DNA of 61,010 bases from a virus. The notes beneath the pieces were generated by a model. The model ran no database searches, was not told where the DNA came from, and saw only the letters and a program-made list of their open reading frames with translations. Below are positions 4,602 to 61,010 of this stretch, one piece after another. Positions within the stretch are counted from its first letter, which is position 1, and the number at the start of each line of letters is the position of its first letter. The stretch lies in IMG/VR virus record IMGVR_UViG_3300027554_000001; one strand, given 5' to 3'. The translations under genes and the position numbers were made by a program.

Positions 4602-5561
4602 ATGAATTGGCTCGGCGGATTGCTCGGCGGTGCAGCCAAGCCGATCAGCGAGTACGGCCAGTCCCGGCAGGAGACCGCGCAGTGGAAGCACCGCGCCGAT
4701 GCCATCATCGCCGTGGCTGCCGCATCGTGGCGCCCGTGGCTGGCTCGCCTGCTCGGCTGGTGCATCCTGATCCACGTGGCAGGCTCGGTGCTGCTGCTGA
4801 TCGGCATGGTCTACAGCGAGACGAGCGACGCGGTGTGGAGCTTGCTCGCCACCTGGGCGCTGTGGATGGCGTACGGGCGCACGCTCTTCGATCTGACGGC
4901 GACCCTGCTGGGGCTCTACATCGGAAGCCGGGGGCTGGAGAAGGTCGCGCCGGCTATCGGCGGTCCGGCCGGGCAGGCGTTGGGCGCTGCAGCGGGGTGG
5001 GTAACCGGCAACCGTGCAGCCCCGGAGGTCCAGCGTGATGATCTTCGATCGCATGACGCGCCGCTGCAACGGCTGGACGGGATCGTGGTGCCGGGCAGGG
5101 CGCAGGGCGTCGCGGCGACGCAGGGCTGGCAATGGGGGGCGCGCTCGACGCAACGGCTTTCCCATGCGCGCCAGGAGTTGCAGGATCTCTTCGACTGGCT
5201 TCTGCCGCGAAGCCCGTACGACCTGACGATCGGCGAGACGATCCGCAGCGTCGAGGAGCAGCGCGGGTACGTCGAAGGCGGCCAGTCACGCACGATGGAC
5301 AGCCGGCATCTTGAGCGCCCGGCCGCTGCCGTCGACTTCTACATCATCGATCCGAAAACCGGCAAGGCCAGCATGGGCGCGACCGAGCGTGAGCTGGACA
5401 TGTACCGGGAAGTGCTGACGATCCTGCGCGAAGGCTCCGAGGAGCTGGGCATCCCGGTCACGTCCGGCGGGATTGACTGGGGCTGGGATTTCTTTCACGT
5501 CGAGCTTGACCGAAAGCACTACCCGCGCGGCCCGAGCGTACTGGACGGCGTGCCCGCCTGA
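4602..5561 (+). CDS. Holin-like multi-TM domain fused to peptidase M15 endolysin domain
   Basis: N-term 'MNWLGGLLGGAAKPI...SWRPWLARLLGWCILIHVAGSVLLLIGMVY...WSLLATWALWMAY...LLGLYIGS' resembles the 3-TM GTA-type holin family (DUF3154). C-term 'EEQRGYVEGGQSRTMDSRHLERPAAAVDF...GGIDWGWDFFHVELD' = M15 (VanY/T5-lysin-like) H..D..H Zn site. Confidence 0.8.
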   Translation: MNWLGGLLGGAAKPISEYGQSRQETAQWKHRADAIIAVAAASWRPWLARLLGWCILIHVAGSVLLLIGMVYSETSDAVWSLLATWALWMAYGRTLFDLTATLLGLYIGSRGLEKVAPAIGGPAGQALGAAAGWVTGNRAAPEVQRDDLRSHDAPLQRLDGIVVPGRAQGVAATQGWQWGARSTQRLSHARQELQDLFDWLLPRSPYDLTIGETIRSVEEQRGYVEGGQSRTMDSRHLERPAAAVDFYIIDPKTGKASMGATERELDMYREVLTILREGSEELGIPVTSGGIDWGWDFFHVELDRKHYPRGPSVLDGVPA

Positions 5562-18043: not shown

Positions 18044-18441
18044 GCGAGGGCAAGCTGACCGTCAAGCAGCGCCGCTTCGTTGCGGAATACTGCATTGATG
18101 CGAACGCCACACGCGCAGCCAAGGCGGCCGGATACAGCGAGGACACGGCCCACGCTATCGGTCACGAGAACTTGAGCAAACCTGAAGTGCGGCAGGAGAT
18201 TGACAGGCAGGAGGCCGACCGTCTGTCAGCCGCATCGTTGACTGCTGACTTCGTGCTGGCCGGCCTGATAGCCAACGTCGAGGCCGCTCGCAACGCCGAG
18301 AAATTCAGCGACGTCAACAAGGGGTTGGAGCTGCTGGGCAAGCGCTTGTCCATGTGGATCGAGAAGACGGAGAACGTCACGACGCTCAACGGTGCTACCG
18401 AGGTGCGTGTGATCGAGGTGCCGGCCAAGGGAAGCGTGTGA
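18040..18441 (+). CDS. terS: Terminase small subunit
   Basis: ATGA coupling. 'LTVKQRRFVAEYCIDANATRAAKAAGYSEDTAHAIGHENLSKPEV' = Terminase_2 signature. Confidence 0.85.
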   Translation: MSEGKLTVKQRRFVAEYCIDANATRAAKAAGYSEDTAHAIGHENLSKPEVRQEIDRQEADRLSAASLTADFVLAGLIANVEAARNAEKFSDVNKGLELLGKRLSMWIEKTENVTTLNGATEVRVIEVPAKGSV

Positions 18442-19799
18442 TCGAGCCGCGCCACGTCTGGCAGGCATCGCCCAAGCAACGGGAGTTCCTGGCCGCTGAC
18501 GAGCCGGAGGTGCTATTCGGCGGTGCGGCCGGAGGGGGCAAGTCGGATGCGCTGATTATCGATGCGCTCGGGCTGGCTCAGGGCGCGATCGAGGTCTCAA
18601 CATACAGCGCGATCATCTTCCGCCGCACCTACGCCGAGCTGGAGCAGCTGATCGAGCGATCGGCGGCGCTGTACACGCAGATCAGCCCCGGCGCCAAGTT
18701 CAACGAAACCCACAAGACGTGGACCTTTCCGTCCGGTGCCAAGATCCGGTATCGCTACCTCGAGCGCCCCGCCGATCGATTCCGTTATCAAGGCTCAGAA
18801 TTTCAGTACATCGCCTTCGACGAGCTGACGCAGCACCCGACCGATGTGGGTTACGAGTACATGCAGTCGCGGCTGCGCTCGGGCACGAATCGGCTGAATC
18901 TCTACGTGCGCGCCACGTGCAACCCTGGCGGCTTCGGGCATGAGTGGGTGCGCGATCGATGGCTGATCCCGGATGACGGGCAGGCGTCCACCAACGTGAT
19001 CGACATGGACGGTGAGCCGTGGACGCGCCGATTCATCCCGTCGCGCATCAGCGACAACGCCTATCTGGCTGGCACCGGTTACGAGAAGCGCCTGAAGATG
19101 CTGCCCGAGATGGAGCGCAAGGCGCTGCTGGAGGGCCGCTGGGACGTGATCGAGGTGGTGGGCGCGATCTATGGCGACGAGATCGCGCAGATGTACGAGG
19201 ACGGCCGGATATGCGGCGTGCCGATCGAGCCGCGCCTGCCGGTCTACACGTTCTGGGATCTGGGCAGGTCCGATGCCACGGCGGCGTGGATGATGCAGAG
19301 CGTGGGCATGGAGCGGCGGCTGATCGGCTACAAGGAGGATCGGTTCAAGTCGATCTCGTGGTGGGCCAAGGAGATGCGCGAGTGGGCCAAGGTCAAGCGC
19401 ATCGGGTACGCCGATCACTACATGCCGCACGACGTCGAGGTGCGTCAATTGAGCCTCAACAACGCCAGCCGCAAGGAGATGTTCGAGGAGGCGGGCATCA
19501 GCCCGATACAGGTGGTGCCGCGCGTGCAGTTCATCGAGGACGGCATCGACGTCACGCGCGAGTTCCTGGCGACGTGCTGGATCGATCGGCAGGGGTGCGC
19601 GGACGGGCTCAAGGCGCTCGCCAACTACCGCCGCGAGTACAACGAGGGGCAGGACGTGTACAGCCAGAAGCCGCTGCACAACTGGGCGTCCAACGGGTCG
19701 GATGCGCTCAGGCAGGCCGCGCAGGGCTTCGTGCCGCCCGAGCGGTATCGATTCGAGAAAGGCAGCTACGAGCCCGAAGCCTTCGAGGAGGTGTACTGA
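18438..19799 (+). CDS. terL: Terminase large subunit
   Basis: GTG overlapping the terS stop. 'PKQREFLAADEPEVLFGGAAGGGKSDAL' Walker A; 453 aa; typical position. Confidence 0.9.
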   Translation: MIEPRHVWQASPKQREFLAADEPEVLFGGAAGGGKSDALIIDALGLAQGAIEVSTYSAIIFRRTYAELEQLIERSAALYTQISPGAKFNETHKTWTFPSGAKIRYRYLERPADRFRYQGSEFQYIAFDELTQHPTDVGYEYMQSRLRSGTNRLNLYVRATCNPGGFGHEWVRDRWLIPDDGQASTNVIDMDGEPWTRRFIPSRISDNAYLAGTGYEKRLKMLPEMERKALLEGRWDVIEVVGAIYGDEIAQMYEDGRICGVPIEPRLPVYTFWDLGRSDATAAWMMQSVGMERRLIGYKEDRFKSISWWAKEMREWAKVKRIGYADHYMPHDVEVRQLSLNNASRKEMFEEAGISPIQVVPRVQFIEDGIDVTREFLATCWIDRQGCADGLKALANYRREYNEGQDVYSQKPLHNWASNGSDALRQAAQGFVPPERYRFEKGSYEPEAFEEVY

Positions 19800-19904: not shown

Positions 19905-20369
19905 ATGATCACTCTCTACCACGGCACGCACGAGCACTCACTGCCCGCGATCCGCACCGGCATGATCAATGGCGGACTGTTTGACGGCATCTTCGCCGGA
20001 ACCGAGCGTGACATCGCCCTGTCCCATGCGCCGAGTGTTTTCGAGATTGACGTGCCGGCTGACCGCATCGCTTCGTCATTCGATCTGGCACAGGCCGATC
20101 ACGAGGCGATCCGGGCGACGCTGCAGCGCGAGACGGGCGCGGATGACGCCGACCTGCTCGACGAGCTGTACGACGCTGTCACGAGCGACACGCCGGACGC
20201 TGACGACTTCGTCGGGCGCATCGGCACGCGCAGTTTCGCGGATGAGTTCGCCGCGACGTCGTGGGAGCTGCAGCGTCTGCGCGGTCGCATCGCTGCCGAT
20301 CTCGGCTATCTCGCGGTCGAGATGGACGACGAGCACGGGACGAGCTACCTCGTGCTCGGGATCGCCTGA
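19905..20369 (+). CDS. Hypothetical protein with ADP-ribosyltransferase-like (H-Y-E type) N-terminal motif
   Basis: 'ITLYHGTHEHSLPAIRTGMINGG...GIFAGT' resembles the [IL]YH-x-TH...L..I...G start of DarT/PolyVal-type ARTs and diphtheria toxin 'YHGT'. Assignment is tentative. Confidence 0.4.
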   Translation: MITLYHGTHEHSLPAIRTGMINGGLFDGIFAGTERDIALSHAPSVFEIDVPADRIASSFDLAQADHEAIRATLQRETGADDADLLDELYDAVTSDTPDADDFVGRIGTRSFADEFAATSWELQRLRGRIAADLGYLAVEMDDEHGTSYLVLGIA

Positions 20370-20834: not shown

Positions 20835-21083
20835 ATGACTGCCACGACGCACGACAATGCAAACGACTATCCCTGCGAGTGCTGCCACGAAACCGGACTG
20901 ATCGGAGATCGCGGCGATTACTGCGACGGGGCATCACCTTCGCTGCACTTCTGCCACTGCGAGCGCGGCAACGAAAAGCAAGACCACGAAGAAGCACGAG
21001 AGACGCAGGCAGCTGGAAATGACTGGCCGGAGCGCGAGCGCGTCCCGCTGGTCTGGGGTGGCGATTTGGAGGAAATGCGGTGA
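20835..21083 (+). CDS. Cys-rich small protein (82 aa)
   Basis: 'YPCECCHETGLIGDRGDYCDG...LHFCHCERG' Zn-finger-like; ORF track. Confidence 0.5.
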   Translation: MTATTHDNANDYPCECCHETGLIGDRGDYCDGASPSLHFCHCERGNEKQDHEEARETQAAGNDWPERERVPLVWGGDLEEMR

Positions 21084-21337
21084 TCGCCGGCTGCTACCAC
21101 ATGGACCTCTACTGCGATGCCAGCGACAACTGCGAGGCACGTGCATTACGACGTCACGGTGGCACGGAAAAGTGGACAAGCAACGGACTGGTACAGACCG
21201 AAGCCGATGCGCGCAAGGACGCACGCGCGGACGGATGGCGCTTCGAGCGCGGCGGAGACCGCGTGCTTTGCCGTAATTGCTGGGAGTCTGGAATACGATT
21301 CGCTACGCTAGATGCCTTTGCCGAGGCGCCCGCCTGA
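21080..21337 (+). CDS. Cys-containing small protein (85 aa)
   Basis: GTGA coupling; 'CYHMDLYCD...C....GW...LCRNCW'. Confidence 0.5.
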   Translation: MIAGCYHMDLYCDASDNCEARALRRHGGTEKWTSNGLVQTEADARKDARADGWRFERGGDRVLCRNCWESGIRFATLDAFAEAPA

Positions 21338-21540
21338 TGCCCCGAGGACAAGCAGCAGACCCGACCAAGGACGGCCGACGCGGAGACGGCCCGCCGTTGC
21401 GTGACACGGGCGATCGGCTGCAACTGCTGCTGCCGGCTGGCACGAAACAACGCTGGAAGGCCGAGGCAAGGCGGCGCCGCATGTCAATTACCGCGCTCGT
21501 GCAAGAGCGAATGGACCAACCAAACAGGAGAGACACATGA
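21337..21540 (+). CDS. Ribbon-helix-helix-like protein (67 aa)
   Basis: TGATG coupling; 'RLQLLLPAGTKQRWKAEARRRRMSITALVQERM' strand-helix-helix pattern. Confidence 0.45.
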   Translation: MPRGQAADPTKDGRRGDGPPLRDTGDRLQLLLPAGTKQRWKAEARRRRMSITALVQERMDQPNRRDT

Positions 21541-21758
21541 CACGCACCTTCTACCTGGACGACGCCATGCGCGCCGAAGGCGAGGACTTCCGCAACGTAT
21601 CCCCGTCCTATCGCTTCAGCAACGGGCGGGAGTTTCGCGACGAGGCCCCGCGAGCGGCCGCACCGATCGCACCGTACGTGGCGCCCACCGTGCTGCCGTA
21701 CGTGGAGCCTGTGACGCCTGCCAGCGTGGTGGTGGCGGGGGATTGGGAGCCATCATGA
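21537..21758 (+). CDS. Hypothetical protein (73 aa)
   Basis: ATGA coupling both ends; ORF track. Confidence 0.5.
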   Translation: MTRTFYLDDAMRAEGEDFRNVSPSYRFSNGREFRDEAPRAAAPIAPYVAPTVLPYVEPVTPASVVVAGDWEPS

Positions 21759-22063
21759 GCACCCTAACCCGACGGGGCTTCATCCGACTCGGCGCCGCTG
21801 GCCTTGTCATGGCTGCAGCGCCTGCGATCGTGCGGGCTGACTCGCTGATGCCGGTGCGTGCGGTGCCGGAGTGGCATCGTGTCCGGGTGGCGCTGATGCC
21901 GGATGGAACATTTGAGTGGAAGGTATGGGACGATCAGCCGGTAATGAGGCAAGCGGACAGGGATCAAGCCATTCACGAGGCGTTTCGCAAGGCGGCGATG
22001 AATATGGATTTCACGCGTCTGCGCGCGCACATGGCGCGCTGCTGCGTGGTAGCTCCATCATGA
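21755..22063 (+). CDS. Twin-arginine (Tat) signal-peptide protein (102 aa)
   Basis: 'MSTLTRRGFIRLGAAGLVMAAAPAIVRA/DS' = S/T-R-R-x-F-[LI]-[KR] Tat motif + h-region + AxA site. Track start 21401 rejected. Confidence 0.6.
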   Translation: MSTLTRRGFIRLGAAGLVMAAAPAIVRADSLMPVRAVPEWHRVRVALMPDGTFEWKVWDDQPVMRQADRDQAIHEAFRKAAMNMDFTRLRAHMARCCVVAPS

Positions 22064-22407
22064 AGCCCCTACCCCTCGCCCTCGCATCCCTCGCCCTGCT
22101 GGCGGGCACGGCCGATGCATCTTTCTACAACGGTAACGACCTGCACGGATGGTGCGGCACTACCCCTGCCGAGCCGGGCTACAACAGCGACCGTGCACAG
22201 TGCATGGGCTACGTCGTCGGGCTGGTCGATGGGCTAACCGGCATCGGCACGGCGGGCGACGCGCTGTGCCTGGAGGGCAAGACGGCTGCGCAGGTCACGG
22301 ACGTGGTGGCGAAGAATCTGCGCGACCATCCTGCGGGGCGCGACCGACTGGGCGTGGATGTGGTCTTCTTCGCGCTGCTGCAGGCGTTTCCTTGCGATGA
22401 CGACTAG
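22060..22407 (+). CDS. Rap1a/Tai4-like periplasmic immunity-type protein
   Basis: Signal peptide 'MKPLPLALASLALLAGTADA'. 'NGNDLHGWC...CMGYVVGLVDG...LC..GKTAAQVTDVVAKNLRDHP....VVFFALLQAFPC' follows the Rap1a family pattern as I remember it. Confidence 0.6.
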   Translation: MKPLPLALASLALLAGTADASFYNGNDLHGWCGTTPAEPGYNSDRAQCMGYVVGLVDGLTGIGTAGDALCLEGKTAAQVTDVVAKNLRDHPAGRDRLGVDVVFFALLQAFPCDDD

Positions 22408-22457
22408 CTGACGATTCACTACGGGCCTTTTCATGCCCGCAACACACGCCACAAACC

Positions 22458-22470
22458 GCTCCTACAGTGG
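22458..22470 (+). promoter_or_regulatory. GCTCCTACAGTGG motif (putative -10; ATG 6 nt after TACAGT)
   Basis: Exact 13-mer; TACAGT 22463..22468, then GGTCGT, then ATG 22475; no SD. Confidence 0.35.
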
Positions 22471-22474
22471 TCGT

Positions 22475-22825
22475 ATGGCGAAACAATACCGCACGGCCGA
22501 CCCGGTCCTGATCCGCGCTCTGTGCGCCGACATCGCAGGCATAGCGCAGCGCGAGTACCCGTGGTACGCGTGGGGCGTGCGAGCCACGGCCGATGGCTCG
22601 ATGATCGAGATGATCTGTGACGTGCCGGGGCTTGCGACGACCGAGGGCTGGATGTTTTCCACCGAGCGCATCCAGCAGGTCAGCGGACGCACGCGCATGA
22701 TCCGGGCCGCCTGCGGCGAGATCCTGGAGCGCTTCGGCCTGTCTCGCGAGCGCAAGACGCCGCTGGCTGATGTCGCCGCCCACCTGTACCGCGACACGCG
22801 CGGCGAGCTGCACGCGCGCCACTGA
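22475..22825 (+). CDS. Hypothetical protein (116 aa)
   Basis: Track ORF 22433..22825 trimmed to the ATG after the motif; TGATG-coupled to portal. Confidence 0.55.
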   Translation: MAKQYRTADPVLIRALCADIAGIAQREYPWYAWGVRATADGSMIEMICDVPGLATTEGWMFSTERIQQVSGRTRMIRAACGEILERFGLSRERKTPLADVAAHLYRDTRGELHARH

Positions 22826-25056
22826 TGCGCCACGGGGATGCGGTAGGGCTGTCGTACAACCTGTCGGACGGGACGGACCCGGCCGACGGGGCGAATGGGG
22901 CGAGCGGTGACCCGACCGTGGAGCAGGCGCCGTCTGATGATCCGTTTGCGGTGCTGGGCGGCATAGGGGCGCTCCTGCAGCTATCCGAGCAGTGCCTTGT
23001 GGACTCGACGCACTACCTCGACAGCAATGTCAGGCGACAGATCGAGACCAACCTAGCCAACTTCCAGTCGCGCCACCCGGCAGGCTCGAAGTACCACAGC
23101 CCGACCTACAAGCACCGCTCGCGCCTTTTCGTGCCCCGTACGCGCTCCGTGGCGCTGCGCACCGAGGCCGCTGGTGCTGCCGCCTTCTTCAGCACGCGCG
23201 AGGCCACCTTCGTCGAGCCACGCAGCCAGGACGACCCGGCGCAGGTCGCAGGGGCAGCGCTGCACCACAAGCTGCTCGAGCACCGGCTCAAGCACAGCAT
23301 CAAGTGGTTTCAGACCGCGATCGGGGCAATCCAGGATTGCTTCGTGCAGGGCGTGTGCATCAGCCGCCAAGGCTGGGACTACCGTGTGGACTCGGACGGC
23401 GAGGTCATCGCCGATCAGCCCACCGTGACGCTGATCCCGATCGAACACCTGAGATGGCAAGCCTCGGCGGACTGGTGCGACCCGTTGGCCGATTCGGAGT
23501 ACCTGATCGAGATCATGCCGATGACGGTGGCGCGCGTGATGGAGCGCATGCGGCCCGTTGGGGAGGAGCCGCCCGAGTGGCGCCCGGCCTCCTGGTCGGC
23601 CATCGCCACCGCTGCCCGCACGCCCGACAGCCTGCAGTCGGCACGCGAGAGCAATCGAGGCGCCCCGGACGACAACGAAACCGTACCGCTGCATCGGATC
23701 GTCTACGTGTACCGGCTTATCGTGCGCCGCGAGGGCATCGACTACACGTGGTACTCGCTCGGCACCGATCACCTGCTGACCGCTCCCGCGCGGTTGAAGG
23801 ACATCAACCCGCAGGGTAGGCGCCTGTACCGCATGGGCGCGATGAATATCGAGAGCCACCGCGCGGTGCCGCAATCGACCGCCGAGCACTTGATGGGGCT
23901 GCAGGCGGACGTCAACCACACGCGCAACGATCGAAAGGACAACGTCGCGCTCGCGCTCAACAAACGCTATCTGGTGAGCCGCAACGGCCGCGTCGACATG
24001 CCCGCGCTGATGCGCAACGTGCCGGGCGGGTCGATCTCGGTCAACGACGTCAACTCGTCGGTCAAGGAGATCCAGACCAATGACGTGACCGCGTCGAGCT
24101 GGCGCGAGGAGGAGAGCACCAACGCCGCCTTCGACGAGATGGCGGGCAGCTTCTCGCAATCGTCCGTCAACACCAACCGCCGCATGAGCGAGACGGCGGC
24201 CGGCATGGAGCTGATCGCAGCCGATGCCAACGTCATCACGGAGTACCACCTGGAGGTCTTCGCGACGACCTGGTACGAGCCGGTGCTGCAAGACCTGTTG
24301 GCGCTGCAGCAGGCATTCGAGAGCGACGAGACGGTCATCGCCTTGGCAGCCGAGCAGATGGAGTTGGCCGCCGAATACGGGCTCGGCATGCCCACCGAGG
24401 AGATCATGAGCGCACCGGTGACGCTGAGCGTATCGGTGGGTGTGGATGCGACCAACCCGACGCGGAGATTCGAGCGGCTGCAGGCGCTGGGGCAGTCCGG
24501 GGCGGCACTGGGTCTGGAGCCGAACGGTCCGGAGCTGTACCGCGAGATGGCGGGCTCCTTGGGATTCGACAATGGCGATCGCTTCATCATCCAGCCCGAT
24601 CCGAATGCCCAGCCCGCACCGGACCCTGTCGCCGAGCAGGCCGCGATGCAGCAGGAGGCCGAAGACATGAAGGCGCAGGTCATGCAGGCGAAGATGGAGC
24701 AGGACGGCCAGATCGCCATGCAGCGCATGCAGCTGGACGCCGAGCGATTGCAGGCTGATGCGACCCGTGCGCAGCAGCAATACGAGATCGCGATGGCGAA
24801 GATGCAGATCGATGCCGAGAGTCGCATCCAGCAGGGCGAGCAGAATGCGATGGATGAGCAGGCAGCGCTCCAGTCACGCGAGGAGATCGCGCTGATGCAG
24901 GACTCGACCACGCGCGAGATCGCCGGGCTCAACGCCGAGTCGGCACGTCAGCAGAAGCTGCTCGACGGGGAGATCATGCTGCAGCGTGAGGCGATGAAGC
25001 CGCAGCCCCAGCCCGTACAATCGGGGGGTGATTCCAATGGGGGGTACTTGTCGTGA
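22825..25056 (+). CDS. Portal protein
   Basis: 743 aa, directly upstream of scaffold and capsid genes. C-terminal about 150 aa is Q/A/E/M-rich coiled coil, reminiscent of P22-type portal barrels. No profile run. Confidence 0.65.
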   Translation: MRHGDAVGLSYNLSDGTDPADGANGASGDPTVEQAPSDDPFAVLGGIGALLQLSEQCLVDSTHYLDSNVRRQIETNLANFQSRHPAGSKYHSPTYKHRSRLFVPRTRSVALRTEAAGAAAFFSTREATFVEPRSQDDPAQVAGAALHHKLLEHRLKHSIKWFQTAIGAIQDCFVQGVCISRQGWDYRVDSDGEVIADQPTVTLIPIEHLRWQASADWCDPLADSEYLIEIMPMTVARVMERMRPVGEEPPEWRPASWSAIATAARTPDSLQSARESNRGAPDDNETVPLHRIVYVYRLIVRREGIDYTWYSLGTDHLLTAPARLKDINPQGRRLYRMGAMNIESHRAVPQSTAEHLMGLQADVNHTRNDRKDNVALALNKRYLVSRNGRVDMPALMRNVPGGSISVNDVNSSVKEIQTNDVTASSWREEESTNAAFDEMAGSFSQSSVNTNRRMSETAAGMELIAADANVITEYHLEVFATTWYEPVLQDLLALQQAFESDETVIALAAEQMELAAEYGLGMPTEEIMSAPVTLSVSVGVDATNPTRRFERLQALGQSGAALGLEPNGPELYREMAGSLGFDNGDRFIIQPDPNAQPAPDPVAEQAAMQQEAEDMKAQVMQAKMEQDGQIAMQRMQLDAERLQADATRAQQQYEIAMAKMQIDAESRIQQGEQNAMDEQAALQSREEIALMQDSTTREIAGLNAESARQQKLLDGEIMLQREAMKPQPQPVQSGGDSNGGYLS

Positions 25057-26521: not shown

Positions 26522-27508
26522 ATGCCAACACTGGCTGATCTGGGCGCCAACGCGCCCGCCGAGGGAGCCGGCCAGCTCTGGGTCGCCGATGAAATCGGTG
26601 GCTACATGTACTCGGACAACCTGTCCGACAAGCTGCGGATTCTGGTGCAGGCACGCTGCCGGTACCGTCAATTCTGCGAGCTGCCCGAGCCGACGATGTC
26701 GGGGACGGGCAAGGGCGCCATGTTCCACTGGAATGTGTACGGCGATGTCGAGACGCAAGGCCGTGCACTGCTCGAAACCGAGCGCATGCCGTCCACGCGC
26801 CTGCAGGCCAAGCAAGGCACCCTGACGGTGACCGAGTACGGCAACAGCGTGCCCTACAGCGGCAAGCTGGATGACCTGTCCGCGCACCCCGTGTACGAGA
26901 TCATCAAGAAGGCGATGGAGCGCGATGCGGCTCAGACCTTCGACTACGACGCGTACCTGCAATTCAGGAAGACCCCGTTGAAAGTGGTGCCGCAGGGTGG
27001 CAACAGTGCGACCGCCATCACGATCACCGAAAACGGCACGCCCGCCGCTGCCAATGGTGCCGCCCTGACCACCGACCACGTCAAGGAGATCGCCCTCCAG
27101 ATGCGTGAGCGCAACATCCCGACCCACAGCCACGGCGACTACTACTGCATCGCCCGACCCACCACGTACCGGGTGGTCGAGAAGAATCTGGAAAACATCC
27201 AGCAGTACACCGCTGATGGCTTCCAGATGATCCGCAACGGCGAGAAGGGGCGCCACGCAGGCGTACGCTTCGTCGAGCAGACCAACGTGGCCGCATCGGG
27301 CGACTTCACCGGCAACAACGGCGACGAGGCGTTCTTCTTCGGCGATGACGTGGTCGTGGAAGGCTGCGTACTGCCCGAGGAGATTCGCGGCAAGATCCCC
27401 GACGACTACGGTCGCGGCAAGGGTGTCGCGTGGTACGCGCTGCTCGGCTTCGCACCGGCTCGCCTGGATGCAGCGGATGCGCGATGCGTCCACTGGACAT
27501 CCGTCTGA
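26522..27508 (+). CDS. Major capsid protein
   Basis: 328 aa after the scaffold. Composition and length fit HK97-fold capsid proteins; resembles the N4-gp56-type family from memory. Confidence 0.7.
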   Translation: MPTLADLGANAPAEGAGQLWVADEIGGYMYSDNLSDKLRILVQARCRYRQFCELPEPTMSGTGKGAMFHWNVYGDVETQGRALLETERMPSTRLQAKQGTLTVTEYGNSVPYSGKLDDLSAHPVYEIIKKAMERDAAQTFDYDAYLQFRKTPLKVVPQGGNSATAITITENGTPAAANGAALTTDHVKEIALQMRERNIPTHSHGDYYCIARPTTYRVVEKNLENIQQYTADGFQMIRNGEKGRHAGVRFVEQTNVAASGDFTGNNGDEAFFFGDDVVVEGCVLPEEIRGKIPDDYGRGKGVAWYALLGFAPARLDAADARCVHWTSV

Positions 27509-28515: not shown

Positions 28516-28830
28516 ATGAGTAACGAAACCGACGTAGAGCAGGAGATTCAGGACAAGGGCCTGACCGCGCCACGCTTGACCCCGGCGCTGATCGACGAGC
28601 TGGCCGATGGCGCCGTGGCCGAATTCGCGGTGCTGCATGGCGTGCTGACCGTGTGCGCCCTGAAGGTCCGCAATGGCTTCACGGTGACCGGCATCAGCGC
28701 GTGCGCCAGCCCGGAGAATTTCGACAAGGAGCTAGGGGAGAAGATCGCCCGCGCCAATGCTCGCGGCAAGCTGTGGGAGCTGGAAGGCTACCTGCTGCGC
28801 GAGAAGCTGGCGACCGCCGACGACGCATGA
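28516..28830 (+). CDS. N4 Gp49 / Sf6 gp66 family protein
   Basis: 'TVCALKVRNGFTVTGISACASPENFDKELGEKIARANARGKLWELEGYLL' matches that family's signature. Confidence 0.7.
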   Translation: MSNETDVEQEIQDKGLTAPRLTPALIDELADGAVAEFAVLHGVLTVCALKVRNGFTVTGISACASPENFDKELGEKIARANARGKLWELEGYLLREKLATADDA

Positions 28831-29528
28831 CCTACCTCGCGCTCTGTCAGGAGGTCGTCAGACGCGCAGGCGTGGCCGGGGCCAACCGAGGCGCCCCCGA
28901 CACGCTACAGGGCGCCACAGGGCGTCTGGCGCAGATCGCCGACTTCGTGCAGGAGGCGTGCTTGCTGGTCGAATCCGAGTGGACCGACTGGACATACCGA
29001 TCGGTCGACATCGACATGGACGTACCACCGGGTGCTGATCGCATCGACCCGCGCGACACCGGCAGTGATGTCGAGCGCATCAGCGCGCACGCGGTATTCG
29101 CCCGCGACGAGGTCGAGCGCCGGCAGCTGGTGGCGATGAGCTGGGCAAGCATGCGCCGGCTGATCAATGCGCAAGGCCCGGCTGTGACGACCGACCTGCC
29201 CACGCAATTCGCGATCGACCCAGCCGGCGTGATCCATTTCGCGTCGGTACGCGACGAGGACTGGCTGCTGCGCGCCGAGTGCGTGCTGCGCCCGACCACG
29301 CTGCGCCTCGATGACGACGAGCCGCTGATCCCTGCCGACTTCCACGACTTGATCGTGCACGGCGCGCTGGTGCGCTACCACGAGTCCGAAGAAGCCTTCG
29401 ACCTGATGAGCCGCGCCGAGTCCGCCTATCAGGCATGGATGACCCGCCTGGAGGCTGCATGCCTGCCGGGCAGCGACTACAGCCGCACCTACTCGCCCGA
29501 GGTGCCGCTGATCATGCGGACCTACTGA
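28827..29528 (+). CDS. Head-to-tail adaptor / tail-tubular-A-like protein (putative)
   Basis: ATGA coupling; 233 aa; position before a 594-aa protein mirrors podovirus gp11/gp12-type pairs. Function inferred from position only. Confidence 0.45.
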   Translation: MTYLALCQEVVRRAGVAGANRGAPDTLQGATGRLAQIADFVQEACLLVESEWTDWTYRSVDIDMDVPPGADRIDPRDTGSDVERISAHAVFARDEVERRQLVAMSWASMRRLINAQGPAVTTDLPTQFAIDPAGVIHFASVRDEDWLLRAECVLRPTTLRLDDDEPLIPADFHDLIVHGALVRYHESEEAFDLMSRAESAYQAWMTRLEAACLPGSDYSRTYSPEVPLIMRTY

Positions 29529-48828: not shown

Positions 48829-49172
48829 CAGAAAGGCGGTTCTTCGAAGGCGTCGGCCGGCGCGGACTGCTGCGGTGCGGGCGCAACCCCGGCCCGGTCG
48901 ATCTTCCAGGCCTGCAAGCTCGTGAATACCTTGCCCTGGTCCGTCTGCTTTCCGCGCAGGTTGAACCGGACGCGCACCTCGTCGCCCACCGCGAAGTCAT
49001 TCAACAGATCGCACTTGTCCTGCGTCGTTTCCATCTTCGCGAGTTGAGGGTAGTTGCCATCTTCCAGCTCGATGACGAACTCGCGCACGCGGAAGGTGGC
49101 GCTGATCTCCCGCGCAGCTTTCGCCAGGTGAGTGATGCGGCCGGTGGCCTCGAAGTTGTTGCCGTTGCTCAT
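48828..49172 (-). CDS. DUF3127 OB-fold (SSB-like) protein
   Basis: GGAG upstream. 'FRVREFVIELEDGNYPQLAKMETTQDKCDLLNDFAVGDEVRVRFNLRGKQ...FTSLQAWKI' = DUF3127 signature. Confidence 0.7.
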   Translation of the reverse strand: MSNGNNFEATGRITHLAKAAREISATFRVREFVIELEDGNYPQLAKMETTQDKCDLLNDFAVGDEVRVRFNLRGKQTDQGKVFTSLQAWKIDRAGVAPAPQQSAPADAFEEPPF

Positions 49173-49801
49173 GCTGCGTTCTCCAGTTGTTCGATGCCGG
49201 ACATCCGGCGAAGTCGTTCCAGCATCACGTCGCGCGCTTTCAGGCACGCATCGATGCCGGCCTGCATCAGCGCCTCGGCCTCGGCGTCGCGCTCCAGCCT
49301 TGCAACCGCCAGCGGTGCGCCGGGGTAGTGCACGACGCAATCCCACCAGGCGCGATCCGTGACCATCAGGCTCAGCCGGCACTGCGCGATGTAGGCGCTC
49401 GGCACGGTGCCGTGCTCGTCGATGTGCTCGGCGGCCTCGGTGTAGCCGTTGACGAGCGGGTTTTTGATCTCGACGCCGCCGTCCGCGCCCACCAGTCCGT
49501 CCGGGCTGCACCCGATCTGGCCGGATGCGATGAAGCCGGACTCGATCACCTCGACCAGCCGCTCCGCTTCGTATTCAGTGCGTGCGACCGCTTCGAGTTC
49601 GATCCCTCGCTCCATCGCCCACGTCGATCCGGACTCATCGATCCAGCGACCCAGGTGGACCTCAAGTGCGAGCCGCCTGCCGAGCGACGCGGCCGATGCC
49701 GATACCTTTCCGGTCTTCGGCATCACCAACTGATCGGCGCGCGACGCGGTGATGAGTCCGTGCCGAGACAGCCGCCACGCTTCACTCAGTTGCTCGCTCA
49801 T
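49169..49801 (-). CDS. YqaJ-type (lambda Exo-like, PD-(D/E)xK) recombination exonuclease
   Basis: 'SEAWRLSRHGLITASRADQL...AMERGIELEAVARTEYE...CSPDGLV...GVEIKNP'. Only the 3' 633 nt of track ORF 49169..50674 used. Confidence 0.8.
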   Translation of the reverse strand: MSEQLSEAWRLSRHGLITASRADQLVMPKTGKVSASAASLGRRLALEVHLGRWIDESGSTWAMERGIELEAVARTEYEAERLVEVIESGFIASGQIGCSPDGLVGADGGVEIKNPLVNGYTEAAEHIDEHGTVPSAYIAQCRLSLMVTDRAWWDCVVHYPGAPLAVARLERDAEAEALMQAGIDACLKARDVMLERLRRMSGIEQLENAA

Positions 49802-50589
49802 TCGGGCGCCTCCGCTGCCGGCAGCTTCGCGGACAGCGCCTGCGCCGCCTTCGCCACGGCTTGAGCGGGCAGGGCCACGCCGATGCCGTTGTCGGCCGCC
49901 CCGTACTTCTTCACGTAGGCCGCGACGAATGCCGCCTTCGTGCCGGGCGTTGCCGTTTCCGCCTTGTCTATCAGCGCGGACAGTTCCGTGATCTGCCGCT
50001 CCGTGGCCGGCACCACCTCGGGTGCAGCCTGGATCGTCTGCGCATCGTTGTCGCCCTCGGCCGCGATCCCCAGCGCCGCCGACAGCGCGTACCGGCGGGC
50101 GTACGCCGACGAGATGCCCCACGCTTGCGCTGCGTTGATGCCCTTGCCCTGCTCGACGGGCACGCCGAACTCGGTGCGCTCCTCGTGCCCGTCGCGGTGG
50201 CTGACGATGCATACCGCCGTGGTCCATGCCGGGTCGCGCTCTTGGCGCTGCTCCCAGCGCACCGTCAGACCGTTCGACGACAGCGGGGCGCGCGCAGCGT
50301 TGAGCAGGTCGTCGATCGTTGCGTACTTGCTGCGCAGGTGCGTGTTGCTGCCCGAGCGCCCGGTCGGCCCTACGTCTCGACGAAACCTCGTCATGGCCGC
50401 CATCCACTCGCGGCGGGCCACGAATCGGCGCTCCTGGTGCTCGGCGTCCAGCAGCTTCTGCAGCGCGTCGGGATTGATGTTCGGCTGCGCTCGCACGATC
50501 TGCAGCACCGGCGACACGTCGCTCGCCTGCAGGCCACTGTGCGGCGTCATCGTGCCGGCTGCGTCGTCGATCAGGGTCATGTCGTTCAT
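49798..50589 (-). CDS. erf: ERF-family single-strand annealing protein
   Basis: 'SKYATIDDLLNAARAPLSSNGL...SHRDGH...AQAWGISSAYARRYALSAALGIAAEGDNDA'. Confidence 0.75.
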   Translation of the reverse strand: MNDMTLIDDAAGTMTPHSGLQASDVSPVLQIVRAQPNINPDALQKLLDAEHQERRFVARREWMAAMTRFRRDVGPTGRSGSNTHLRSKYATIDDLLNAARAPLSSNGLTVRWEQRQERDPAWTTAVCIVSHRDGHEERTEFGVPVEQGKGINAAQAWGISSAYARRYALSAALGIAAEGDNDAQTIQAAPEVVPATERQITELSALIDKAETATPGTKAAFVAAYVKKYGAADNGIGVALPAQAVAKAAQALSAKLPAAEAPE

Positions 50590-52078: not shown

Positions 52079-52353
52079 ACCTGCTCCTCAAAATCGTCAA
52101 CGATTGCCACGACGCGAGCGCGCCGGTGGGCGATGTACAGCGTGCGCAGCGGCTCGGCCATGCTCGCCACCTGCGCCTGCTCGTCGTCGTCCCAGTCGGT
52201 GAGCTCCCGGATCGACATCTCGCCGACTCGGGCCACGGTGCTGGCGCGGCGCTCCGTGTCGGCGGGCGGCTCAATGTCGGTGTAGTGACGCTCGATGGCG
52301 TCGGTGCGGGCGTACTCGGCGGCGCGGTCAGCCTGCTGCTCGTAGATGCTCAT
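52075..52353 (-). CDS. Hypothetical acidic protein (92 aa)
   Basis: ATGA-coupled ATG 52353 within track ORF 52075..52404. Confidence 0.5.
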   Translation of the reverse strand: MSIYEQQADRAAEYARTDAIERHYTDIEPPADTERRASTVARVGEMSIRELTDWDDDEQAQVASMAEPLRTLYIAHRRARVVAIVDDFEEQV

Positions 52354-53054
52354 GCCGAGCGATCCAATTTGGCCTTCTCGACGGCTGCGCGCTGCTCCGC
52401 CCACATCCGCTCGTCGCCCGCCTCGGCATCGGTCTGCTCGCGATCGGCCGACCAGTCATGTCGCGCCAAGTGGGCCCGGCACAGCGCGATCAGCGCGCGG
52501 TACTCGTCGCGACATCGCTCGCTGATCGCGCTGTGCCAGCCGTGTGCGCTCTCGTGCTCGATGCGCTCCGATAGCTCGTCGAGCGAGCCGGTCCAGCAGC
52601 CGCAGTGCAGCGCCTCGCTGCCGTCCGCCAGCCGGTACATCGTGACGTACCGATCCTCCGAGCCGATCGGGCCGTAATGCAGGGCGTCGGTGCAGCGCGT
52701 GATGCGGGCGGCCGAGCCGATATAGGCACCCGAGTCGATGCGAGCGTACGAGCCGACACGGGCACCCGAAGCGACTCGGGCGTGCGAGCCGATGTGGGCA
52801 CCCAAGCCGATGTGGGCGGCCGAGCCGACGCTGGCGTACAAGCCGACGCTGGCGCACGAGTCGATGCGAGCGTACAAGCCGACGCTGGCGTACGAGCCGA
52901 TGCGAGCGTACGAACCGACGCTGGCGTCCGCGCCGATGCGGGCAAACGAGCCGACGCGCGCGTAAGAGTCGACGCTGGCGTACGGGCCGATGCGGGCATC
53001 CGAAACAGTAGCACTCGGCGCGATCCTGGCCGTATCTGCGATGCGGGCGCTCAT
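52350..53054 (-). CDS. Hexapeptide-repeat (left-handed beta-helix-like) protein with Cys/His C-terminal domain
   Basis: About 20 consecutive hexads '[IV]G[SL]YA[RS]' (aa 1-125; DNA 52680..53054, 18-bp periodicity). Then 'YGPIGSEDRYVTMYRLADGSEALHCGCWTGSLDEL'. Confidence 0.65.
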   Translation of the reverse strand: MSARIADTARIAPSATVSDARIGPYASVDSYARVGSFARIGADASVGSYARIGSYASVGLYARIDSCASVGLYASVGSAAHIGLGAHIGSHARVASGARVGSYARIDSGAYIGSAARITRCTDALHYGPIGSEDRYVTMYRLADGSEALHCGCWTGSLDELSERIEHESAHGWHSAISERCRDEYRALIALCRAHLARHDWSADREQTDAEAGDERMWAEQRAAVEKAKLDRSA

Positions 53055-55489: not shown

Positions 55490-55675
55490 ATGACGAATCG
55501 ACATTCTACACCAGCCGCGCGCCCGGCCGAGAAACGCGCCGCTGCCGTGGCCGTGCTGAACAGCCACGAGATGACGACCAGACTTCGGCGGCTGGCAGCG
55601 GAGTTCGGGGTGCCCGCGTTCCCGGCTCGGCTGGATAGGTGCGAGCGGATGGCGGATCGAGGGGCGTCGGCATGA
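55490..55675 (+). CDS. Hypothetical protein (61 aa)
   Basis: Track ORF 55442..55675. ATG 55442 lies in the hairpin loop, so ATG 55490 is preferred. Weak support. Confidence 0.4.
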   Translation: MTNRHSTPAARPAEKRAAAVAVLNSHEMTTRLRRLAAEFGVPAFPARLDRCERMADRGASA

Positions 55676-56277
55676 TCGCCTGCCGCAAGGGATACGTCTA
55701 CGTCCTGTCGAACCCGAGCATGCCCGGCATCGTGAAGATCGGGCGATCAATGCACGGCGGCACCGGGCGCGCCGAAGCCTTCTACCGGAACGACACGGGG
55801 CTGCCAACGCCGTTCGATCTGGAGTTCGAGGTGCTAGTGGATGACTGCCACGCGCTGGAGCGCGACGTGCACGTGGAGCTCGCTGACTGGCGCGCGAACC
55901 CGCAGCGCGAGTTCTTCAGGCTGGACGCCGATTCGGCGCGCCACTTCATCCTGCAGCGCTGGAATCTGGTCATCGGGGCGATCGACTCGCCCGAGCCGCG
56001 CACGCACGCCTACATCGAGTACGCGCAGGACTTCTGTCGGCCGCAGGTCGAAGACCGCCTCGGCCTGACGCGCGGCTGCATTGGCCATTCCGCGTTCAAC
56101 GATGCGGTCGAATGGGTCTCTCGGCAAGCGGGCTTGATGGCGATCGCTTACTCAGAAATGCGTGCCGAGCGGGAGTGGCTCGCGAACTCGAAGCCGCCCC
56201 GTGAGCCGGAGGCGGCACCCGAGCTAGCCGCCAACCCCGCAGCGACGCCCAGCGTCACAGACGGGGTGTTGCACTGA
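55672..56277 (+). CDS. T5orf172/MUG113-type GIY-YIG-like domain protein
   Basis: 'KGYVYVLSNPSMPGIVKIGRSMHGGTGRAEAFYRNDTGLPTPFDLEFE...ALERDVHVELADWRANPQREFF'. Confidence 0.7.
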   Translation: MIACRKGYVYVLSNPSMPGIVKIGRSMHGGTGRAEAFYRNDTGLPTPFDLEFEVLVDDCHALERDVHVELADWRANPQREFFRLDADSARHFILQRWNLVIGAIDSPEPRTHAYIEYAQDFCRPQVEDRLGLTRGCIGHSAFNDAVEWVSRQAGLMAIAYSEMRAEREWLANSKPPREPEAAPELAANPAATPSVTDGVLH

Positions 56278-59736: not shown

Positions 59737-60743
59737 CCACTGAAATGATCAAGTACCCGAAGATCGGCCAATTCCGTGACGCCGCGCACGAGATCAAGCG
59801 CCGCGCATCGTTTCAAGGGCTGGACGAGGCCGGCGAGCCGATCATGCGCGAGCCGAAACGGCTGCCCGAGCTGACATTCCAGGGCGCCGTGAAGCTGCAC
59901 GGCACCAACGGCGGCGTGGTCTGTCGCCCGGACGGCGCGGTCCACTATCAGTCGCGCAATCGCATCCTGACGCCTACTGATGACAACAACGGCTTCGCAT
60001 CGTTTGCGGCAACCGTCGACTGGTCAGTGATGGCGGCCGAGGCGCGCAGCATGGCTAGCGATCTTGCCGACGACACGGTGGCGATTTACGGCGAGTGGTG
60101 TGGGCGGGGCATCCAGAAAGGCGTCGGGATCAGCGAGCTGCCGAAGCAGTTTTTCATCTTCGGCATTCGCGCTGGCGGCGAGTGGCTAAACCTTCGGCTC
60201 TTCGATACGCCGGACGATCGCGTCCACTTCATCGTGGATTTCCCAACCTTTGAGCTCGTCGTGGATCTCAATGCATCCGAGCGCGACCGCAACCGCATGA
60301 TCGAGATGACTGATCGCGTCGAGGCCGAGTGTCCGGTGGCGAAGGCGTTCGGTGTCAGCGGCATTGGTGAGGGCATCGTGTGGCGCTGCATGGACGATGG
60401 CTACCGGGATATCGCATTCAAGGTCAAGGGCGAGAAGCACAGCAAGGCGAAGGTCCGGACGCTCGCGCCGGCCGATGCGGAGCGCGCCGAGCGACTGCGC
60501 GCGCTGGGCGAATTGCTGATGACCGAAGAGCGGATGAAGCAAGGCATCGATTACTTGGACGAGCACAAGCTGGACGTGTCGCGCCGCAATCTCGGCGCGT
60601 ACCTGAGCTACGTGGTGTCGGACTGCTGCGTGGAGGAAAACCTGACGATCCATGAACAGGGATTCGAGCCGAAAGATGTCAAGCGCCACCTGTCGGATGT
60701 GGCGCGGCGCTGGTTTTTCGAGAGGGAGGCGGCTAGTGCCTGA
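59733..60743 (+). CDS. Rnl2-family (T4 Rnl2-like) ATP-dependent RNA ligase
   Basis: Nucleotidyltransferase motifs in order: 'KLHGTN' (I), 'YGEWCGRGIQKGV' (III-like), 'GEGIVWR' (IV), 'IAFKVKGEKH' (V). The helical C-terminal domain parallels T4 Rnl2 as I remember it. Confidence 0.85.
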   Translation: MTTEMIKYPKIGQFRDAAHEIKRRASFQGLDEAGEPIMREPKRLPELTFQGAVKLHGTNGGVVCRPDGAVHYQSRNRILTPTDDNNGFASFAATVDWSVMAAEARSMASDLADDTVAIYGEWCGRGIQKGVGISELPKQFFIFGIRAGGEWLNLRLFDTPDDRVHFIVDFPTFELVVDLNASERDRNRMIEMTDRVEAECPVAKAFGVSGIGEGIVWRCMDDGYRDIAFKVKGEKHSKAKVRTLAPADAERAERLRALGELLMTEERMKQGIDYLDEHKLDVSRRNLGAYLSYVVSDCCVEENLTIHEQGFEPKDVKRHLSDVARRWFFEREAASA

Positions 60744-61005
60744 CAGCGACGAAATCGACATGCCCGAAACCGATTACATTCGAATCTGGCGATTCCACGA
60801 TGCACCGGCCGACCTGCGCGCCCTGAGCAACAACGGCGGCGACGAGGACTGGCTCGCCGTCATCCCGCCATCGATATTCCACGCCGACGAGGACGACTGG
60901 ATCGGATGGATGGAGGCGGGGCACAGCTTCGGGTGCTGCGACGTGTCGCGCTACGAGCACCCGACGCTCGCCGGGTATCAGGTCCGCATCGGGAGCCACG
61001 CGTGA
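60736..61005 (+). CDS. Conserved hypothetical protein (89 aa; ATG 60760 alternative)
   Basis: GTG overlapping the ligase stop. 'YIRIWRFHDAP...GGDEDWLAVIPP...WIGWMEAGHSFGCCDV'. The 3' end is duplicated at 1..122. Confidence 0.55.
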   Translation: MPDSDEIDMPETDYIRIWRFHDAPADLRALSNNGGDEDWLAVIPPSIFHADEDDWIGWMEAGHSFGCCDVSRYEHPTLAGYQVRIGSHA

Positions 61006-61010
61006 ACGGC
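60884..61010. repeat. Terminal direct repeat copy 2 (= 1..127)
   Basis: 127/127 identity with the first 127 nt. Confidence 0.95.

Follow-up and report, generated by a model that had tools for sequence, protein, structure and literature searches.

Rap1a (SMA2260) of Serratia marcescens confers immunity to Ssp1, a type VI secretion system (T6SS) DL-endopeptidase, and is the founder of the 'Tai4a' fold, PF18602 (PMC3852654). AtTai4 of Agrobacterium tumefaciens (PDB 6IJE and 6IJF) confers immunity to AtTae4 and is encoded beside that effector in a T6SS cluster (PMC6277958). The main Tai4 family (EcTai4, StTai4, Rap2a, Rap1b and Rap2b) consists of periplasmic, dimeric, disulfide-containing helical inhibitors of Tae4 (PMC3852654). 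Here we describe a Rap1a-like gene (22060–22407, + strand) in a tailed-phage sequence of 61,010 nt, IMG/VR record IMGVR_UViG_3300027554_000001, which we call the window at its full length, together with the open reading frame (ORF) directly upstream, which has a predicted twin-arginine (Tat) signal peptide.

A Rap1a-family protein encoded by a phage

The Rap1a-like gene encodes a protein of 115 aa, with a predicted mature part of 95 aa (isoelectric point, pI, 4.4). Its N-terminus, MKPLPLALASLALLAGTADA followed by SFYNGN, appears to be a classical Sec type I signal, with n-, h- and c-regions and an AxA site; from these sequence features the signal peptide is predicted to span residues 1–20 (22060–22119, + strand), with cleavage after A-D-A. 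Signal peptides occur at the same position in all members of a 71-sequence alignment. The Rap1a domain covers residues 24–112 (22129–22395, + strand) and includes C70, C112, the C32/C48 pair and the invariant Q78. It matched Pfam PF18602 along the whole model (positions 1–90 of 90) with a score of 62.6 bits (cut-off 27.7; E 5.1e-17), and precomputed annotation concurs with this assignment. The protein also matched phrog_3870 (PHROG 3870, a phage family with no assigned function) with an E-value of 5e-13.

An exhaustive phmmer search, in which the Tat-signal and Rap1a-like proteins were concatenated and compared with 1.84 billion representatives, returned 1,613 cluster representatives at E ≤ 1e-3, all of ~105–130 aa, the best being 44–45% identical. 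Cysteines 32, 48, 70 and 112 are conserved at 96–99% in the 71-sequence alignment, and G25, Q78 and P91 are invariant; N26 is likewise a subfamily-specific invariant residue. This 4-Cys subfamily of Rap1a is very large, with at least 1,600 cluster representatives, and its members are almost always stand-alone genes.

Among solved structures, the best match to a profile of the subfamily in a PDB search was A. tumefaciens Tai4 (6IJE/6IJF, E 1.6e-7); Serratia Rap1a (3ZFI/4BI8, E 2e-4) was also found. Rap1a was missed when the PDB was searched with the single sequence, and was found by the profile search. The profile alignment places C70 and C112 on the cysteines that form disulfides in Rap1a (C78–C122) and AtTai4 (C80–C124; PMC3852654, PMC6277958), and C70–C112 is the predicted family disulfide pair of the phage protein. 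An AlphaFold model built from an 18-sequence alignment had a mean predicted local distance difference test score (pLDDT) of 87.5 and a predicted template modelling (TM) score of 0.75. The top seven Foldseek matches to this model in the PDB were all Rap1a/Tai4 structures (4BI8, 3ZFI, 6IJE and 6IJF; probability 1.00, target-normalised TM 0.67–0.77), and the next match had a probability of just 0.15. Rap1a was the best of these (target-normalised TM 0.75–0.77, root-mean-square deviation 2.9 Å). Identity to the validated proteins Rap1a and AtTai4 in the structural alignments was 18–25%.

The phage protein thus resembles Rap1a in its predicted cleavable N-terminal signal peptide, its modelled all-alpha mature domain of ~95 aa, its C70–C112 pair and the motifs GY..G..D, P..R and FPC, which are common to both. 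It differs in that it is only ~19% identical, is encoded by a phage, and has neither an adjacent ssp1-like effector nor a T6SS cluster. With AtTai4 it shares the five-helix fold, as modelled, and the position of the disulfide; it is 22–25% identical to AtTai4, and its gene, unlike that of AtTai4, is an orphan. The main Tai4 family has the same job as the one proposed here for the phage protein and a different fold; none of its structures was among the 40 Foldseek matches, nor did EcTai4, StTai4 or Rap2a turn up in the PDB profile search.

Membership of the Rap1a/Tai4a family is established on the criteria of sequence, modelled fold, predicted disulfide and predicted signal peptide; gene structure, family membership, fold and conserved cysteines are all direct results of the analysis. 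The original prediction, made from the DNA sequence, had assigned the protein to the Rap1a family (PF18602) from a Sec signal, a Cys pattern and helices. Pfam, the PDB profile search and AlphaFold with Foldseek bear out the assignment, the alignment and the model support the predicted signal, Cys pattern and helical fold, and the comparison with Rap1a and Tai4 structures that it had proposed gave confident matches to both.

Orphan status and a possible role in T6SS immunity

The Rap1a-like phage gene is an orphan, as are its closest relatives, and this too was established directly. In functional terms the family is defined by neutralising a Tae4/Ssp1 DL-endopeptidase whose cognate gene is adjacent, and the genes adjoining the phage copy are of other kinds: the Tat-signal ORF, which has no homologue, two small ORFs (orf73 and orf130) and the portal gene. 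We examined ~30 homologue loci, nine of them in gene tables that carry precomputed domains and the others in a census of 128 neighbouring ORFs, and the Rap1a-like genes there were stand-alone. The neighbour families seen most often were phage integrase, Crp-type helix-turn-helix regulators, resolvase, DUF4238 and methyltransferases, together with a second copy of Rap1a; one DDE transposase, DndB, GmrSD and similar genes were also present. No T6SS family was among the 25 commonest of the 81 neighbour families to which the census extends, beyond which a single Tae4 neighbour is possible. A scan with the A4 alignment returned 0 loci in IMG/VR, 3 in genomes and 32 in metagenomes.

In ENA ERZ22864804 (L020, 4451–4843) a Rap1a-family gene lies between purS and purQ, with stops and starts overlapping on both sides, and because of these overlaps it is a stable member of a purine-biosynthesis operon. 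In Logan SRR19514070 (L016, 3168–4641) a Rap1a-family gene and the gene for a zinc carboxypeptidase-like protein of the M14/AstE-AspA type share 8 nt at the end of the latter; this was the sole peptidase-type neighbour seen among the homologue loci.

Orphan T6SS immunity genes on mobile elements are described as orphan immunity islets and arrays and as acquired interbacterial defence. The phage locus is like them in having an immunity-type gene without an effector on a mobile element, and its close homologues adjoin integrases, resolvases and transposases. It is unlike them in being carried by a phage genome that is complete and in whose scanned proteins no integrase was detected, and in that its site lies between the terminase and portal genes.

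We propose, with about even confidence and by analogy with the characterised members of the family, that the Rap1a-like protein acts as a phage-carried orphan periplasmic inhibitor of Tae4-class peptidoglycan endopeptidases, which would guard the cell that the phage occupies from T6SS attack. The protein would be made in an infected or carrier cell and, as its signal peptide predicts, exported by Sec to the periplasm. There the all-helical, disulfide-stabilised protein would form a homodimer, as in the Rap1a–Ssp1 and AtTai4–AtTae4 systems. The dimer would sterically block the active site of incoming DL-endopeptidases of the Tae4/Ssp1 class, so that the host cell would stay intact under T6SS attack. 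The export step, the dimer, the enzyme it would target and the gain for the phage are all inferences here, and protection from T6SS attack is plausible on the analogy with the two characterised relatives. This immunity reading fits the association of the relatives with mobile elements (integrases, resolvases and transposases), and it fits the position of the gene in an accessory cluster headed by an AcrIF11-type homologue.

Several results weigh against this proposal. Tae4, NlpC/P60 and T6SS domains were absent from the neighbours and from the larger phage proteins scanned; because no cognate effector or T6SS gene lies nearby or beside the relatives, the immunity function is extrapolated from two distant members of the family. 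Gln84 of Rap1a, which plugs the active site of Ssp1, aligns to T75 and is not conserved, although interface residues also differ between the validated members. The subfamily moreover has an invariant Gln78 of its own and, in C32/C48, a further Cys pair; neither feature is found in Rap1a or AtTai4. Some homologues lie in housekeeping operons, such as that between purS and purQ. Finally, no promoter or terminator was detected between 17.5 and 23.5 kb, and the Rap1a-like gene sits inside the morphogenesis region.

The main rival to T6SS immunity, which we consider rather unlikely, has the 4-Cys subfamily binding some other conserved partner or ligand in the periplasm. The Rap1a scaffold would then have been put to another, envelope-related use by the phage. 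The size of the subfamily and its almost always stand-alone genes argue for this, as do the members embedded in housekeeping operons. Its own Gln78 and extra Cys pair likewise mean that the subfamily may have a different partner, and G25, N26 and P91 are further subfamily-specific invariants. Gln78 sits in the segment that matches the effector-occluding alpha2–alpha3 region of Rap1a, and the equivalent of the occluding loop (G-V-T-x-G-Q) is unusually conserved across diverse members. Immunity interfaces normally diverge. Against a different partner, Pfam and NCBI class such proteins as Rap1a/Tai family, no recurrent neighbour points to an alternative partner, and orphan T6SS immunity genes on mobile elements are documented in the literature.

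The upstream Tat-signal gene and the remaining alternatives

The gene directly upstream (21755–22063, + strand) encodes a protein of 102 aa without homologues, with a predicted mature part of 74 aa (pI 8.1). A GGGAG sequence resembling a Shine–Dalgarno site lies 5 nt upstream of its ATG (21745–21749, + strand). Sequence features predict a Tat signal peptide at residues 1–27 (21755–21835, + strand), the N-terminus being MSTLTRRGFIRLGAAGLVMAAAPAIVRA followed by DS. Within it the motif TRRGFIR (residues 5–11; 21767–21787, + strand) fits [ST]RRxF[LIVM][KR] exactly. The h-region, LGAAGLVMAAAPAIV, is rich in Ala and Gly (mean Kyte–Doolittle value ~1.7), and inspection of the sequence found a basic c-region residue and an AxA-type site after it, V-R-A before D, with cleavage predicted after V-R-A. 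When all six frames of the window were searched, with 2,095 candidate start positions, the strict Tat pattern occurred in this ORF alone, at two nested starts, and therefore the motif is not a by-product of the 66% GC composition. The protein is probably sent to the periplasm via the Tat pathway.

The original prediction had described ATGA-joined genes at 21755–22407 that each open with an export signal, one of them a twin-arginine leader. Its coordinates and the peptide it quoted were exact, both genes are joined in this way with a predicted export signal at the start of each, and the leader is real at the level of the motif (TRRGFIR, unique among the 2,095 starts). At that level the Tat-signal gene would be a minor curiosity.

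It is unlikely, in our judgement, that this ORF is not Tat-exported, whether because translation begins at Met19, because it encodes a Sec substrate with a chance RR, or because it is not expressed, any of which would leave one exported protein at the locus. Several observations point that way. TIGR01409 scored 13.6 bits (E 0.069) against a cut-off of 16.7, and Pfam TAT_signal (PF10518) was not reported at E ≤ 10. The GC content at third codon positions (GC3) is 0.69, compared with 0.81–0.87 in the neighbouring genes, and the codon score is near zero, marginally positive; the ORF fell below the threshold for codon-score gene calling. One database gene call begins at Met19 and gives 84 aa, which removes the signal, and there is no homologue to show conservation. 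Word-index searches with this protein and, separately, with the Rap1a-like protein each returned only the query, tblastn of the Tat-signal protein against phages and a search of IMG/VR found none, and among the 150 phmmer matches listed (to E 4e-8, ~49 bits) there was no relative of the Tat-signal protein, all but the self-match aligning to the Rap1a part.

Set against these are the exact consensus, the weakly hydrophobic h-region, the basic c-region and the AxA-type site, a combination unique among the candidate starts. The GGGAG sequence is also well spaced before ATG 21755, whereas no Shine–Dalgarno-like site precedes the internal ATG at 21809. The ORF bridges two ATGA junctions exactly, its frame has the best codon score of the six, and a second, independent database gene call gives 102 aa. 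The protein had no match in Pfam, PHROG, NCBIfam or PADLOC, and a single-sequence AlphaFold model had a pLDDT of 53.5, with Foldseek matches that were noise.

Tae4/Ssp1 effectors have an NlpC/P60-like domain of ~160 aa with a Cys–His catalytic pair and no signal peptide. We also considered the Tat-signal gene as an effector of this class and rejected it, as its mature part has 74 aa and no family or fold match.

Inhibition of a phage-derived peptidoglycan hydrolase by the Rap1a-like protein is improbable, whether the enzyme is the phage's own lysin, with an effect on lysis timing, or that of a superinfecting phage, with an effect on exclusion. The predicted periplasmic location would suit such a role, since known family members block cell-wall hydrolases, and the protein is phage-encoded; its homologue in Cronobacter phage ENT47670 likewise lies in a head-gene region. 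However, the sole wall hydrolase detected is 17 kb away. This endolysin (4602–5561, + strand; 319 aa) has an N-terminal region of ~170 aa with several hydrophobic segments, fused to a C-terminal M15C zinc L-Ala-D-Glu peptidase domain (PDB matches include ChiX), whose mechanism is unrelated to that of the enzymes known to be blocked by the family, the papain-like Tae4/Ssp1 class. NlpC/P60, CHAP and Tae4 domains were not found in the large virion proteins and proteins of unknown function that were scanned, and most homologues occur in non-phage contexts.

The original prediction had named an M15 lysin at 4602–5561, where the M15C domain is indeed present, and had suggested that the exported proteins might modulate it. 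The latter is unlikely because the only detectable lysin is this M15C zinc peptidase, with no domain of the NlpC/P60 or Tae4 type in the proteins scanned. As a lead hypothesis, the phage lysin as target was accordingly rejected. A small ORF before the endolysin gene (in the stretch from 4404, + strand) carries the lipobox LLSGC and looks like an outer-membrane spanin, as judged from this motif.

The original prediction had also treated the two exported proteins as a functional pair, which was not supported. Apart from their ATGA coupling, a feature of this genome only, nothing links the Tat-signal and Rap1a-like genes functionally. At eight other Rap1a-like loci the proteins directly beside the gene included no exported or Tat-type partner, and across the domain listings for the remaining homologue loci no such partner recurred. 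A self-contained periplasmic module, in which the Tat-exported protein would act on the envelope as toxin, exclusion factor or wall-enzyme modulator and the Rap1a-type protein would be its neutraliser or partner, is highly improbable: the arrangement mimics effector–immunity operons (PMC3533786) in its upstream agent, downstream Rap1a-type protein and ATGA coupling, and the mature proteins are oppositely charged (pI 8.1 and 4.4), but the mature Tat-signal protein, at 74 aa, is smaller than a Tae4/NlpC-P60 fold requires, and none of the other Rap1a-like loci examined has such a partner. If true, it would be a virus-deployed pair of the effector–immunity kind, delivered via Tat instead of the T6SS.

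Phage-borne relatives, the phage genome and its accessory cluster

Standard pipelines recognise the Rap1a family, which is already known, and homologues are carried by a few other phages. Rap1a-like genes were found in phage DSL-LC04 (WJZ48091), Cronobacter phage ENT47670, DARTUKUTA_59 and the Microcystis phages Mwe-JY25 and Mwe-JY07, and in PHROG 3870. Like the window protein, these are small, signal-peptide-bearing members of the same family from tailed phages. In contrast, they are of the 2-Cys type, share ~30% identity with one another and with the window protein, and are encoded at different genome positions, none with a Tat-signal neighbour. No paper testing a phage-encoded Rap1a/Tai4a protein was found in the literature. 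What is new here is a Rap1a/Tai4a member in an uncommon carrier, coupled to an uncharacterised Tat-signal neighbour.

The DSL-LC04 gene (OR003939; L022, 6983–7309) is labelled 'type VI amidase' / Tai4 in GenBank. This product name looks wrong because the sequence is that of a signal-peptide-bearing, Rap1a-like protein of the immunity type and not of an amidase; the DSL-LC04 paper does not mention the Tai4-labelled gene. In ENT47670 (HQ201308, 34292–34615; L004, 4959–5285) the homologue is an unannotated ORF of 108 aa on the opposite strand, between the gene for a 466-aa hypothetical protein and the head morphogenesis gene.

If the immunity function proposed above is true, the phage equips its cell with armour against interbacterial T6SS attack. 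That would tie together two usually separate fields, contact-dependent warfare between bacteria and the cargo genes of phages, and phages would join the vehicles that spread orphan immunity genes. No member of the 4-Cys subfamily has an assigned target, and the function of any one of them would bear on thousands of annotations as 'Rap1a/Tai family immunity proteins'.

The window represents a tailed-phage genome of ~60.9 kb, complete and assembled as a circle, with an SU10-type portal and adaptor. It has an exact terminal direct repeat of 127 bp (1–127 and 60884–61010), from which it follows that the assembly is circular and thus complete. The large terminase (TerL, 18438–19799), the SU10-type portal (22825–25056) and the major capsid protein (26522–27508) bear out the phage context assumed in the original prediction, and the SU10 adaptor is encoded at 28827–29528. 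Recombination genes of the lambdoid type (NinB, NinG, ERF and exonuclease) are present; these and genes for a hexapeptide-repeat transferase, a T5orf172 domain protein and an RNA ligase lie at 873–2919, 49169–50589, 52350–53054, 55672–56277 and 59745–60743. There was no integrase among the phage proteins scanned and no tRNA was found in the genome. The phage host is a Gram-negative bacterium.

Two further public assemblies hold the same phage and are base-identical over 20 kb. Close relatives were not found in INPHARED, IMG/VR or the JGI metagenomes, the portal protein as query returned no relatives in scans of IMG/VR and metagenomes, and blastn of 7 kb of the window against phages gave no match. 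In the nearest cultured phages the portal and TerL are merely ~30–33% identical.

Small co-directional accessory genes fill the stretch from the large terminase to the portal. The first, directly 3′ of the terminase gene, encodes a 154-aa homologue of the AcrIF11 family of anti-CRISPR ADP-ribosyltransferases (19905–20369, + strand), which matched AcrF11 (PDB 6KYF, E 1.8e-13) and phrog_11282 and has a precomputed assignment to PF26151. This homologue hints that the host has a CRISPR system of type I-F. Two overlapping small Cys-rich ORFs follow (20835–21083 and 21080–21337, + strand; 82 and 85 aa), with CxxC-like motifs, weak codon scores and no family match; from these motifs they may be zinc-binding accessory proteins. 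The cluster ends with orf73, the Tat-signal and Rap1a-like genes and, last, orf130. The first of these (21537–21758, + strand) encodes 73 aa without a signal peptide or family match, and has a codon score of 0.27 per codon and a GC3 of 0.81. The product of orf130 (22433–22825, + strand; 130 aa) is likewise without a family match, and its stop codon, which closes the cluster, shares 1 nt with the start codon of the portal gene. Rfam and PADLOC gave no match.

The last genes before orf130 are chained by stop/start overlaps. The TGA stop of orf73 overlaps the ATG of the Tat-signal gene (ATGA), and a second ATGA joins the Tat-signal and Rap1a-like ORFs. A sequence of 21 nt is common to both junctions with 81% identity (CCATCATGAGCACCCTAACCC at 21750–21770 and CCATCATGAAGCCCCTACCCC at 22055–22075), and this likeness may reflect a coupling signal used at both or be left over from the joining of the genes.

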